Below are positions 43,200-61,800 of a stretch of DNA of 64,000 nt, one piece after another (the stretch's first letter is position 1; every line of letters begins with the position of its first letter). Position numbers and translations under genes: made by a program. Source of the DNA: a virus; the IMG/VR virus record IMGVR_UViG_3300006310_000773, one strand, 5' to 3'. The notes beneath the pieces were generated by a model. That model did not search any database and had not been told where the DNA came from. It worked only from the letters and a program-made list of their open reading frames with translations.

Positions 43200-43706
43200 C
43201 TATTTAAATCTTTCGTCTGTTTGCCAAATTTTATCATCATCATAAGCCCAAGCTACTAAAGAATATCTAGCTCCAGATATTACTTTTTTCACTCTATGAT
43301 TAATATTTGAATCGTAAGTAATACAGTCACCAATATTTAACTTTAAATCATTCAGCCCTTCAAATTCTAATTCACCACCAGTGAAATCATTATTAAGTAA
43401 TATTATATGTGAACGAATTTTACTTTTATCATTATGCCAATGAAAACATTGTCCTACTTTATATTCAGAAAATTGTAATGCTAAATTACTTTCCAATCCT
43501 ATTAATTCATCTTTATCACTAATTTCATAAAGTTTACTTATTAACTCTTCTTCTTTATAATTATACCAACTTGAATTTCTAAGTTCTTTAACTATTCCTC
43601 GATCATTTACTGGTGCAGCCCGCACATATTGATAATTTTTTAAAATTATATTAAAACAAGTTTCCTCGTCAAGAAATTCTCTTCTTATTTTCGGTTCAAA
43701 TGTCAT
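43200..43706 (-). CDS. 2OG-Fe(II) oxygenase (prolyl hydroxylase-like)
   Basis: FHWHND, DFTGGELEF and HRVKKVISGARYSLVAW. Confidence 0.9.
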   Translation of the reverse strand: MTFEPKIRREFLDEETCFNIILKNYQYVRAAPVNDRGIVKELRNSSWYNYKEEELISKLYEISDKDELIGLESNLALQFSEYKVGQCFHWHNDKSKIRSHIILLNNDFTGGELEFEGLNDLKLNIGDCITYDSNINHRVKKVISGARYSLVAWAYDDDKIWQTDERFK

Positions 43707-43769
43707 AAAACTCTAAAATATAATGGGGGAATTCTTCTGTTCCTAAGTGATTCCCCCCAAACTCGCTAA

Positions 43770-43997
43770 TTACTGCTTCTCTACAAATTCATAGAGTTCT
43801 GTAGCCTTCTTCTTAATATCCTCAATGGAATAAGAATCTGGCTGAAGTTCTTCAAACAACTTCATATTTGCATCGCCTTGCTCTTTTGCAAATTCCCATG
43901 CATCAATAGCAAAGTGTTTTTGTCTTTCTTGTTGATCATAGAGATAACTTTGTGCCATCTCTAAAAGTCTAAATCTTAATTCATATGGATTAGACAT
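43770..43997 (-). CDS. Conserved hypothetical phage protein
   Basis: MSNPYELRFRLLEMA...ATELYEFVEKQ with AAGGA RBS. The upstream ATG in the ORF track lies inside the tmRNA. Confidence 0.75.
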   Translation of the reverse strand: MSNPYELRFRLLEMAQSYLYDQQERQKHFAIDAWEFAKEQGDANMKLFEELQPDSYSIEDIKKKATELYEFVEKQ

Positions 43998-44033
43998 ATT
44001 GTTCCTTTCATTTGTGTGTGTGTTGTGTGTAAT

Positions 44034-44378
44034 GGTCAGTTCTTCTGTTCCCAAGTGACTGACCTGAACTCGGCTATAGTCTACGCAGCGAGTGCGTAAG
44101 AGTATGCGGTATAATCGTCATTGTTTGCGATTAATTTAATGGACCGTTACGGTGGTGCCTCTACCGAATACCTCTATATCTACCTTCACAATCAATCGAA
44201 ATCTATTTCAGCCCCATCAACGAAAGTCATATCCAAAATAAAGTGTGACATAGGTAATACCTAAAGCGAGCAATATCATTATTGTGAGCCACATTAATTT
44301 CTTTTCCATAACTTCCTTTGGTGGAGCTGATCGGAATCGCACCGATGTCTTAACTGTTATCTAGATATGTCAACAGTA
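44034..44378 (-). ncRNA. ssrA: Circularly permuted two-piece tmRNA
   Basis: Acceptor piece ends ATCGGTGCGATTCCGATCAGCTCCACCA at 44319. Coding piece starts GGGGCTGAAA at 44215. G3-U70 pair present. Tag ANNDDYTAYSYALAA* at 44128-44081. Outer ends are approximate. Confidence 0.92.
44217..44309 (-). CDS. 30-aa single-TM peptide within the tmRNA intervening segment
   Basis: AAGGAAG RBS; MEKKLMWLTIMILLALGITYVTLYFGYDFR. Confidence 0.6.
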   Translation of the reverse strand: MEKKLMWLTIMILLALGITYVTLYFGYDFR

Positions 44379-45026
44379 TCAATAACTATTTATAACCTCC
44401 TGTAATCTTTCTACATGTTCATCAGGATCCGCATAAAAAATTTGTGGTGTTCCATCAACTACTGCAATAACTATAACTACTTGAGTTACTTTATTTCCTG
44501 TTCTTTCTTCATACATCTTTGCATATGCAGTTCCCTGTAATTTATAACTTTCTATCCATTCTTCTTTTTTTGGTTTAGAAGAGGTTTTCCAATCTATTAT
44601 AGAAATTTCATCATCATATTCAGCAATACAATCACATCTACCAGCTACTCCAAGAAATTTAGACCACAAAGATACCTCAAGACCATAAATTTTTCCAATA
44701 TGAGTATTTAAAATTGATTGAACTGATTGAAATAACTCAATAGAATCAGGCATATGCCCACTCAAATAATCTTGCTGATTTTTGAGATAGTCTTCGATAA
44801 TCGAATGCGTTCTTGTTCCTCTTCGCGAAGCTTGTGTTGAGATTCTATTGGCTTCTTCTTCTCCAACCCGCTTTCTCCAAGCCTGTATACCAGCTTTGGA
44901 CAAAGATGATAATACTGTAGTGATACTCGGGAAATTTCCATCTGGTGTCTCGTATAATCTTTTTCCTGAAGTATTTATTTGTTTTATTTGACCAGGAATA
45001 TCAACTGTTTCGTGTAAAAAATTCAT
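44379..45026 (-). CDS. PD-(D/E)XK (Cas4-like) exonuclease
   Basis: PSITTVLS, RGTRTH, AGRCDCIAE, IIDWKTS and QGTAYA. Confidence 0.9.
   Translation of the reverse strand: MNFLHETVDIPGQIKQINTSGKRLYETPDGNFPSITTVLSSLSKAGIQAWRKRVGEEEANRISTQASRRGTRTHSIIEDYLKNQQDYLSGHMPDSIELFQSVQSILNTHIGKIYGLEVSLWSKFLGVAGRCDCIAEYDDEISIIDWKTSSKPKKEEWIESYKLQGTAYAKMYEERTGNKVTQVVIVIAVVDGTPQIFYADPDEHVERLQEVINSY
44387..44394 (-). promoter_or_regulatory. T4-type late promoter upstream of the tmRNA
   Basis: TATAAATA immediately before the acceptor piece. Confidence 0.6.
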
Positions 45027-45283: not shown

Positions 45284-45601
45284 TTATTCTGATTCTCTTA
45301 ATGTTACTAGTAAAGGGTATTTATTTTTCTTAGCTTCTTCTAATGTATCAACCGCTTTTTGCTCTGCTATTTGATATGAATAAAGTCCCGCCACACCTTC
45401 TCCTAATTTATGTACATTTAACATAATTCTTTCAGCATCAGGTGTAGTTTTATTAAAAATACTTTTTAATATATAAATAACAAATTCCATAGGAGTATAA
45501 TCATCATTTAAAAGTATAACAAAATAAGTTTTAGGAACTTTTGAATTTATACTTTTCTTTTTCCTAACCTTAATTTTATCTTTTACATCTATGTTTGACA
45601 T
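45284..45601 (-). CDS. clpS: Clp protease adaptor ClpS
   Basis: VILLNDDYTPMEFV, IMLNVHKLG and YPL. Confidence 0.95.
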   Translation of the reverse strand: MSNIDVKDKIKVRKKKSINSKVPKTYFVILLNDDYTPMEFVIYILKSIFNKTTPDAERIMLNVHKLGEGVAGLYSYQIAEQKAVDTLEEAKKNKYPLLVTLRESE

Positions 45602-46441
45602 TTAAAATTCCTGATGCCATTTAAAATTACAAACCTTCATATCTTTCCAAGTTTCAGGATGCTTTATTCTATCTTCTACTAAAGCATTTATTTCCCTTAT
45701 ATTTGGTGTTGATATTGTATATAATTTTTCTTCTGGTCTATTTTCAGGATGTATTATTATCATTTTTTCATCATCATATTCTGTAATACCACCACGTTTA
45801 TAAACAAACTTTCTACCCTTTCTTCGATAATGTACAAAGGAATCGAGTATTTTCATATTCATATATGAGTTTATTTTTTCAAATAAACGTGTGTCTCCAT
45901 GATGCATTCCAACATACTCCTCATCATATCCACCAGACTTCCAAAAATCTTTTTGTTTTATACAAAACACATTTACTGATTGTTTTTTTCTTTTTCCAGT
46001 TATAAAAGAATAATATACATTGTCAAGAAATTCTCTTCTTAAAATAAATTCACATGGTTCTTCGTTTATATATTCTGCCATTTTAGATTTATTATTTCTG
46101 GAGTCATAAACAGAAGTCCTGAAAATATTTTCAACTAAATCTTTTAATGTATTTGGTGGAATCTCCACATCAATATCAGCAAAAAATATCCAATCAGTTT
46201 CTACATGTTTTGCCGCTAAATTTCTTGCTCCATGAGAATTAAATCCCAAATCATCATCTACCACAAATAAAGAAATATCATCTTCTTCTACTAATACATC
46301 TTTCGCTGGTATTTTTTGTGATCCATCATCAACAACTATTAATCTTTTAATTAAAGAATTTCGTATAAAATATTTAGCCGCCTCAACATATTTTTGTAAA
46401 TGATCAGGCTCATTATAATATGTTGTTACTAAAGTAATCAT
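45602..46441 (-). CDS. Glycosyltransferase family 2
   Basis: IVVDDGS, GARNLAA, DID and GGYDEEY. Confidence 0.88.
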   Translation of the reverse strand: MITLVTTYYNEPDHLQKYVEAAKYFIRNSLIKRLIVVDDGSQKIPAKDVLVEEDDISLFVVDDDLGFNSHGARNLAAKHVETDWIFFADIDVEIPPNTLKDLVENIFRTSVYDSRNNKSKMAEYINEEPCEFILRREFLDNVYYSFITGKRKKQSVNVFCIKQKDFWKSGGYDEEYVGMHHGDTRLFEKINSYMNMKILDSFVHYRRKGRKFVYKRGGITEYDDEKMIIIHPENRPEEKLYTISTPNIREINALVEDRIKHPETWKDMKVCNFKWHQEF

Positions 46442-47549: not shown

Positions 47550-47622
47550 TGGAGCGAATGCATGGAATTGCACCATGATCTCAAGGTTGGAGCCCTGTAT
47601 TCTGCTTTTGAACTACATTCGC
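47550..47622 (-). tRNA. Atypical tRNA (Gly-like body, irregular anticodon loop)
   Basis: GCGAATG/CATTCGC acceptor with TCCA end; intact D and T stems; anticodon arm CAGGG-CTCCAA-CCTTG; T-loop TGCAATT. Confidence 0.7.
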
Positions 47623-61159: not shown

Positions 61160-61800
61160 AGAGTCGTGACATGCCCAGGATTTTTCATATACAACCCCCC
61201 CGGGGTCCCCCTCGCTATCTGAACCAGGCCCCCCGCCCCGTCGGTCGGCGACACACATAGCTCAGCGTGCGAAAAGCCCCAGCGTGAACCCCGCCGGTGA
61301 CTAATTTTAATCAAATTTTCATAGATCTTGTATAGGGGGTCGACGGGGTGACGTACTCTAGCGACACATCTTCCCTCACCCGTGTCTGAGAGGTTTGTTC
61401 CCTCTCTCTAATCCCTGATACTCATCTCGCTCGCCGTCACATCAGCCGTCTACGTCCCGTTACTCCGCGTTTTACAATTGTCCCTTAGTCGAACAACACC
61501 GCAATGGGTACTCTGTAGGTGACTAGCGGGGAATGTCCAGAGAATCCACACTCCCTATTTCTAATGGTCATTTTACGCAATCATTATTGACCTATTTGCT
61601 TTCTATCTTTCTAGGGTTAATTTAAAAGGGTTTCTTAATGTCTTATCTTGAGGAGCTTCTACTCCCGGCGCTCCCCCATCCGGGCCGACCTATTTGCATT
61701 AGTGCCGATTTAATTTGTTGACCCAACATGTTCGCCGAGTCTCCTCAGTAGGAGCCGGGTCGTTCCCATTCAAAAGGGATTCATTCATTTATTTAACTTA
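61160..61800 (-). ncRNA. Candidate large structured ncRNA or cis-element (about 640 nt)
   Basis: GC-rich, no long ORF, many helices, directly downstream of a consensus promoter. Confidence 0.5.

Follow-up and report, generated by a model that had tools for sequence, protein, structure and literature searches.

Why does a small open reading frame (ORF) behind a phage transfer-messenger RNA (tmRNA) gene stand between two hairpins that share a loop and differ in their stems? The question is raised by a 64,000-nt stretch of viral DNA, IMG/VR record IMGVR_UViG_3300006310_000773 (the window), in which an earlier note made from the letters alone had seen two minus-strand hairpins, alike in 16 of 17 loop nucleotides, around a small ORF. 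This layout was confirmed by reading of the sequence. We found that the first hairpin (copy 1) belongs to the pseudoknot PK2 at the 3' end of a permuted two-piece tmRNA, and that the second (copy 2) is a paralogous copy of PK2 behind the stop of the ORF, which encodes a 75-amino-acid protein (ORF75). ORF75 and its leader probably form a cassette bounded by recombining PK2 repeats, resembling the cassettes of T4-type phages that are flanked by promoter-early stem-loops (PeSLs), with copy 2 providing a generic 3' structure for the mRNA.

The tmRNA gene was matched by two Rfam models, RF04321 (tmRNA_permuted; 111.8 bits over 44380-44081, gathering score 47) and RF01849 (alpha_tmRNA; 62.9 bits over 44431-44034, gathering score 50), and was called by ARAGORN neither in the window nor in the relative L089. 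Its pieces run in the order acceptor piece, spacer, coding piece with the tag, and 3' pseudoknot; a covariance-model score above threshold, a T-arm, a CCA end and a tag frame identify it as a two-piece (permuted) tmRNA, a type for which Keiler et al. 2000 is a reference. The 3' 30 nt of copy 1 aligned base for base to the final 30 positions of alpha_tmRNA, whose consensus ends in GGAGgcACCuGGCAACAGAAacCucC, and the two loops correspond (ACCuGGCAACAGAA in copy 1, ACUUGGGAACAGAA in the consensus). Copy 1 is an already known part of tmRNA, PK2, and because the consensus contains the same loop, conservation of the "loop" is characteristic of the alpha-type tmRNA family. In two-piece tmRNA the coding piece retains PK1 and PK2, one on each side of the tag (PMC3985003). 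The earlier note had copy 1 follow the tag stop, which is right as to its position, but the TAG of TAGCCGAG (44077-44075) is not the tag stop, which lies further upstream (Table 1).

The element is an H-type pseudoknot and more than a hairpin, since the strand CCGAGU pairs with ACUUGG inside the loop (Table 1), and this second helix is the reason why the "loop" is conserved. The remainder of the loop, GAACAGAAGA, forms the A-rich third loop of the H-type pseudoknot. Covariation was examined with a covariance model built from 31 sequences, which collected 84 matches from 90 sources, and 82 distinct sequences were analyzed. All seven stem pairs (7/7) were changed on both sides, with 92.5% of cells paired, and the core of the pseudoknot helix (columns 34-36/64-66) was 99.2% paired and had two pairs in which both partners had changed. 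The compensatory switches in this helix were between A-U (70 sequences) and G-C (12), and among U-A (41), U-G (30) and C-G (9). An inner CUU/AAG helix found in the minimum free energy fold was rejected, as it showed no covariation and breaks exactly where the pseudoknot pair is compensated. The scan of related phages with a covariance model, which the earlier note had proposed as a check, thus supports structured homologous modules, and the pattern of changes argues for strong selection on pairing. In many relatives (L006, L017, L018, L026 and others), loop 1 of PK2 holds an extra hairpin of 15-20 nt (e.g. AGAGGGTAGTCCTCC), placed after the CCGAGTT strand and before the stem, that is absent from window copy 1 and from all copy-2 elements.

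Copy 2 starts 1 nt past the TAA of ORF75 (43772-43770), 308 nt downstream of copy 1. Since it follows the ORF75 stop and not the tag frame, it is a paralogous PK2 copy and not itself PK2. The two loops are identical at 16 of 17 positions, and the flanks are also common to both copies, with TAGC(C)GAGTT before and ATTA after. Because one C has been lost and a loop G has changed to A at 43744, copy 2 retains four of the six pseudoknot pairs of copy 1. The 17-nt loop occurred at only these two sites in the 64 kb, even with three mismatches allowed, and an unfiltered scan of the window returned only the two copies, at 73.2 and 57.0 bits with the next match at 13 bits, using a covariance model built partly from these two sequences themselves. 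Both copies fold as hairpins, with z-scores against shuffled sequences (-1.2 and -1.7) that are individually not significant; the main evidence for structure is the covariation among relatives. Neither copy was called as an intrinsic terminator; the loops are 17 nt long and copy 1 is followed by ATTACACAC. No promoter-like site was predicted in or beside either copy.

How copy 2 came to lie behind ORF75 was read from relatives, with 80 IMG/VR loci encoding ORF75 relatives compared. The clearest case is L089, which is collinear with the window (tmRNA ~94%, oxygenase gene ~92% identity) and lacks ORF75: pairwise alignment left one clean gap of 308 nt, and the gene for a 2OG-Fe(II) oxygenase that follows copy 2 in the window stands directly behind the tmRNA PK2 in L089. 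The boundaries of this segment are ambiguous within the repeated CGAGTT. The single PK2 of L089 is chimeric, consisting of the a-strand of copy 1 with the stem, loop and 3' flank of copy 2. The same empty-site relation was found in another downstream context between L188 and L166 on one side and L026 and L009 on the other, where the indel of L026/L009 relative to L188 is ~306 nt with its breakpoint at the foot of the stem, and L188 has a single chimeric PK2 and no ORF75.

The stem allele of copy 2 is identical to that of the L089 tmRNA PK2 and also stands behind the tmRNA in L104, L171 and others. It is therefore a genuine PK2 allele of close relatives, acquired by recombination and not by co-evolution in place. 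Of the earlier claim that stems which differ yet pair point to selection, the selection on pairing holds (7/7 pairs covary across the 82 sequences), but the two stems did not co-evolve where they now lie. In L007, copy 2 is a hybrid: its 5' arm is the G-rich one typical of copy 2, and from the loop through the 3' arm and the flank it is identical to copy 1 of the same locus, which reads as a crossover inside the loop. More generally, the 5' half of copy 2 is constant (CGAGTTTGGGG..., or AAGGTATGGGTTCC in another lineage) and moves with ORF75, and the 3' half matches the downstream context or the PK2 of the same genome. The G-rich 5' arm pairs with C or U and therefore tolerates different pyrimidine-rich 3' arms.

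Copy 1 was present in almost all close relatives, with many compensatory stem alleles. A PK2-type copy 2 was present in only a minority (L001-5, L007-9 and L026), the others having a plain short-loop GC hairpin after the ORF75 stop. Among 58 unique ORF75 loci with PK2 upstream, the element after ORF75 was a plain hairpin in 27, of another kind in 23 and of PK2 type in eight, and in L108 the copy-2 loop is degenerate. The earlier note had staked its reading on relatives sharing the second copy, and on this test the outcome is mixed: a PK2-type copy is missing from most close relatives and present in several very divergent lineages. On an ORF75 tree the PK2-type state was scattered: it changed five times, and well-supported branches force two or more of these changes. 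Recombination has disturbed this tree too much for it to place the origin of copy 2 in time. In IMG/VR, type-A PK2s that stand behind a tag stop were followed by ORF75 in 43 of 93 cases and by other genes in 50 of 93, among the matches listed, and at least nine further type-A copies, also among the matches listed, follow an ORF75 stop. By this distribution, PK2 is a general module junction. In the tmRNAs of L227 and L258, two tandem PK2-like elements stand behind the tag with no gene between them.

The duplication recurs in distant lineages. ORF75 relatives of 31-35% identity also lie directly behind the tmRNA in L063, L066, L069 and L077, and each of these loci has a copy of its own, quite different PK2 right after the ORF75 stop. 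Within the genome, the downstream copy was 86-89% identical to the resident PK2 in L063, L069 and L077, including lineage-specific loops (UUGUAAUCAAAC, UUAUAACCAAAUG, UCGAAACAGAACG). Across these lineages the downstream copy has a constant 5' half (AAGGTATGGGTTCC) and a loop that matches the resident PK2. Taken together, the comparisons present direct PK2 repeats around leader and ORF75, presence or absence of the cassette with a single chimeric PK2, mosaic copies and concerted evolution. We found no description in the literature of a second PK2 copy outside tmRNA, and neither the duplication around a conserved gene nor its recurrence or concerted evolution appears to have been reported before. 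Two loci, L078 and L079, have no detectable tmRNA; there, positions 2352-2700 hold a promoter-like TTGCTT-17-TATAAT, and ORF75 is flanked by a repeated small pseudoknot-capable hairpin, CCTGAG(T/C)ATGTG..AAAACTGCTC. The stretch upstream of ORF75 in these two loci may be a decayed tmRNA tail.

In the mechanism that we propose, copy 2 would be a paralogous PK2 that was left beyond a cassette of CA-rich leader and ORF75 directly behind the tmRNA. The direct repeats would act as the junctions where homologous or microhomology recombination inserts the cassette, takes it out and re-sorts it among co-infecting phages. Each exchange would restore a complete PK2 on the tmRNA side and leave on the other side a chimeric copy, with its 5' half from the cassette and its 3' half from the downstream context, which would explain why the stems differ yet pair and the loops match. 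As one of the repeats is a working part of the tmRNA, selection on the tmRNA would filter the recombinants to those with a paired PK2. ORF75 is likely co-transcribed with the tmRNA precursor, because the 36-nt gap before it is taken up by the leader and a ribosome-binding site with no room for a promoter, none was predicted, and neither copy is terminator-like. Copy 2 may then serve the ORF75 message as a structured 3' end against 3'-exonucleases or as an intercistronic stabilizer. A plain hairpin would fill this 3' role in most relatives, so that the stem would be kept and the loop and pseudoknot would be free to decay; such a generic role fits the relaxed pseudoknot of the window, the degenerate loop of L108 and the stable stem found everywhere.

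RNA-library contigs from three studies bridge the tag, copy 1 and ORF75; they are assemblies that carry no RNA ends, strand or expression level and may include DNA carry-over, and they weigh little as evidence. None of these contigs skips the 308-nt cassette, which is uninformative either way on excision. Contig depth, a quantity unsuited to ranking genes, dropped past ORF75 in two runs. A joint 44133>44317/8 that skips 183-184 nt (the spacer and the 5' coding piece) was seen in contigs of two studies; its sides are only 25-36 nt, and it probably comes from relatives with a different spacer.

Several points weigh against the recombining cassette. The 3'-end role of copy 2 is purely inferential, as RNA ends are not visible in the contigs. 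Whether the indel arose by insertion or by deletion is ambiguous, with no circular or deleted form observed, and outside the loop the crossover homologies are short (3-10 nt). The pseudoknot pairing potential of copy 2 is kept in all lineages, with GGGGU/ACCUU changed to AAGGU/ACCUU so that A-U replaces G.U. Copy 2 also has a short-loop version of 27 nt, GGTATGGGYWCCACCTTAACGGGCCY, which turned up in seven contexts, among them after a WhiB-like ORF (L231), after an 89-amino-acid winged-helix-like ORF (L307) and in a tmRNA tail (L227), and is 96% conserved across them compared to 53-55% in the flanks; since it could not have been copied from the long-loop PK2 of those genomes, selection on the element itself is indicated. 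The gene order is reversed in L061, with ORF75 upstream of the tmRNA, a hint of a functional link and not of recombination alone. The kept pairing, the short-loop element conserved behind two unrelated genes (~54% in its flanks) and the linkage of ORF75 and tmRNA in either gene order would all suit selection of both copies as a single shared signal in the RNA, either for punctuation or processing or for binding of a common factor, which we regard as a possible but on the whole doubtful explanation. Host RNase, ribosomal protein S1, RNase R and the ORF75 protein are candidate factors, and such a signal would define and couple the 3' ends of the tmRNA coding piece and the ORF75 mRNA. It would also account for a PK2-like copy after ORF75 in at least four very divergent lineages, each copy like its own PK2, and for the short and similar spacing from stop to pseudoknot behind the tag and behind ORF75 (7 vs 4 nt in type A). 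A shared signal fits poorly, however, with the plain hairpin that replaces copy 2 in most close relatives, with the many tmRNAs without ORF75 and the ORF75 genes without tmRNA, and with the two pseudoknot pairs lost from window copy 2, and the likeness within genomes extends to mosaic breakpoints and to positions that are not obviously functional, for which gene conversion is a better fit than selection. That ORF75 itself is a phage-encoded tmRNA partner recognizing PK2-type pseudoknots, or that a host factor (S1, RNase R) does so, with copy 2 placing the ORF75 message in the same regulon, seems unlikely to us. If true, the regulon would mean autoregulation or co-degradation with the tmRNA, and recognition of PK2 would explain why gene and pseudoknot stay together and alike at about one-third ORF75 identity.

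At the other extreme, copy 2 may be functionless, a neutral footprint left when the cassette was recently inserted or deleted, with a structure that it owes only to the structured RNA from which it was copied. Relatives with an empty site and chimeric copies do exist, the loop has decayed in L108 and in the window, and copy 2 does not vary within the clade of the window in a way that could test constraint, but some stable stem-loop stands right after the ORF75 stop in every lineage, even where the loop is wholly changed, and the stem alleles of copy 2 are compensatory (GGGGGAAT/ATTCCCCC, GGGGAGT/ACTCCCC, GGGGGGT/ATCCTCC), making a mere footprint improbable. The earlier note had considered alternative tmRNA 3' ends or an mRNA that mimics the tmRNA coding piece, and nothing that we found supported either. 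The tag frame and ORF75 do share a layout of stop, 4-9 nt and pseudoknot, and contigs run from the tag to ORF75, but these contigs are silent on RNA ends, ORF75 is served by a strong ribosome-binding site and a leader of its own and occurs without tmRNA in some phages, relatives function with a plain hairpin or no ORF75, and no known tmRNA has a 300-nt coding extension; an extended tmRNA end or a tmRNA-mimicking ORF75 message is thus very unlikely. Finally, Riboswitch Scanner predicts a glutamine riboswitch in the "3' domain of ssrA" of the Methylophilales phage Melnitz (PMC9004378), and the tmRNA 3' domain here could by analogy be a riboswitch controlling the downstream gene. This is hardly conceivable for an element that aligns to the tmRNA consensus and folds as PK2, and the glutamine riboswitch models RF01739 (glnA) and RF01704 (Downstream-peptide) gave no match at gathering score, nor at E ≤ 10 on the 421-nt stretch 43690-44110. 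For the 3' domains of phage ssrA, PK2 therefore offers a concrete alternative to the "glutamine riboswitch" that has been published.

Table 1. Features of the tmRNA-ORF75 locus in the window
Feature	Position	Strand	Basis or detail
Permuted two-piece (alpha-type) tmRNA gene	44034..44380	-	Rfam RF04321, RF01849 and sequence reading
tmRNA acceptor piece, ending in CCA (44321-44319)	44380-44319	-	
tmRNA tag frame ANNDDYTAYSYALAA*, GCA start, ...ALAA-stop end	44128-44081	-	stop TAG at 44083-44081
Copy 1, tmRNA PK2 pseudoknot	44034..44077	-	alpha_tmRNA consensus alignment and covariation
Copy 1 a-strand CCGAGT	44073-44068	-	followed by linker TCA
Copy 1 stem GGTCAGT / ACTGACC	44064-44058 / 44040-44034	-	
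Copy 1 17-nt loop CACTTGGGAACAGAAGA	44057-44041	-	ACTTGG (44056-44051) pairs with the a-strand
CA-rich leader ACACACAACACACACACAAA and ribosome-binding site AAAGGA	43998..44033	-	upstream of ORF75
ORF75, 75-amino-acid helical protein	43770..43997	-	homologue alignment, AF2 model
Copy 2 (PK2')	43725..43768	-	sequence reading, fold, covariance-model score 57.0 bits
Copy 2 TAGC-GAGTT	43768-43760	-	a-strand CGAGT at 43765-43761
Copy 2 stem GGGGGAAT / ATTCCCCC	43757-43750 / 43732-43725	-	
Copy 2 loop CACTTAGGAACAGAAGA	43749-43733	-	
308-nt cassette segment	43765..44072	-	3' part of copy 1, CA leader, ORF75 and 5' edge of copy 2
2OG-Fe(II) oxygenase gene	43200..43706	-	ATG 18 nt past copy 2

The ORF75 protein has 519 homologues, none of them named, and its N-terminus MSNPYELRF is invariant in their alignment. 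An AF2 model gave three helices (pLDDT 76.8). No significant family or PDB-sequence match was found in Pfam, PHROG, NCBIfam or PDB (best Pfam match DUF7822, 17.5 bits vs a cut-off of 27), tblastn against phages returned one hypothetical protein of Roseobacter phage CRP-9, and in the Atlas the protein falls in unnamed viral clusters only, with a cluster of ~6,000 members. Identity of ORF75 with the "transcription coactivator" (gp33) beside the ssrA of Melnitz was not confirmed, as ssrA is gene 86 and the coactivator gene 90 of that phage (PMC9004378). A DNA search of the phage collection with the locus gave no match, and the nearest virus record, G001, likewise gave nothing. A CA-repeat leader ACACACAACACACACA with GGAG or AAAGGA precedes ORF75 in every lineage (including L056, L058 and L078), with or without tmRNA, and in L258 it also precedes a different gene behind the tmRNA. 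This leader may be a translational enhancer or a binding site.

The spacer of the tmRNA, which is removed on maturation, is filled by a 30-codon ORF, MEKKLMWLTIMILLALGITYVTLYFGYDFR, with its own ribosome-binding site (44217-44309, minus strand). Its frame is kept in L089, where 13 nucleotide changes lead to hydrophobic swaps only, and the tmRNA spacer of L084 holds a different ORF of 53 codons. The minus strand also carries, ~1 kb from the tmRNA, a gene for a ClpS-like adaptor (45284-45601). A glycosyltransferase-like ORF (45602-46441, minus strand) contains MAEYINEEPCEFILRREFLD, which joins the N-terminus of a nuclease gene (42959-) to a piece of the N-terminus of the oxygenase gene; this fusion is evidence that copy-and-paste recombination has taken place nearby, as would fit a region that is highly recombinogenic. 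Elsewhere in the window, ARAGORN called a tRNA with an abnormal anticodon loop ("cc") at 47550-47622 (minus strand), and Rfam matched an Ocean-VII RNA at 61384-61424 (minus strand, 60.9 bits).

If PK2 is exchanged as we propose, a functional piece of a stable RNA gene would double as a recombination junction and as the 3' structure of a cassette in abundant marine T4-like phages, and the PeSL idea of motif-mediated modular shuffling would extend to an element of an RNA gene. The locus also suggests that two copies in one genome can come to differ by compensatory stem changes through the exchange of alleles and not necessarily through co-evolution in place. ORF75, a habitual neighbor of phage tmRNA, is hence a candidate for study.

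Compared to known systems, copy 1 resembles the PK2 of two-piece tmRNA (RF01849; PMC3985003) in its position behind the tag stop, its loop and its H-type pseudoknot with a covarying helix, and differs in that its CCGAGU/ACUUGG variant is phage-specific. Among 185,579 species genomes, this variant was found only in two phage-like contigs binned into unrelated metagenome-assembled genomes and in one chance match. Intercistronic stem-loops of the REP (repetitive extragenic palindromic) type stabilize upstream mRNA segments against 3'-exonucleases. Copy 2 would be like them as a stable structure right after a stop, in a polycistronic transcript and with no U-tract, but it is a pseudoknot borrowed from tmRNA and its 3' role is a proposal. 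Melnitz and the pelagimyophages with ssrA (Buchholz et al. 2022, PMC9004378) are likewise marine T4-like phages with an alpha-type two-piece tmRNA in an operon, but the Melnitz paper reads a riboswitch there and reports no duplicated tail.

The closest parallel is the PeSL (Arbiol et al. 2010, Comeau et al. 2014). In phage RB49 an ORFan is flanked by PeSLs, and phi1 has one chimeric PeSL instead, with crossovers inside the stem-loop (PMC2839356); excised circles of PeSL cassettes of T4-type phages have been detected (PMC2839356; PMC4122927). The PK2 motif differs from the PeSL in lacking a sigma-70 early promoter, which was found at neither copy, in having only two copies per genome region, and in that a stable RNA gene has one of the repeats as a working part. 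In both systems, repeated stem-loops flank a small ORF without annotated function, and close relatives have one chimeric motif instead of the cassette, with crossovers in or beside the stem-loop, a pattern seen here twice, in the window compared to L089 and in L026 and L009 compared to L188.

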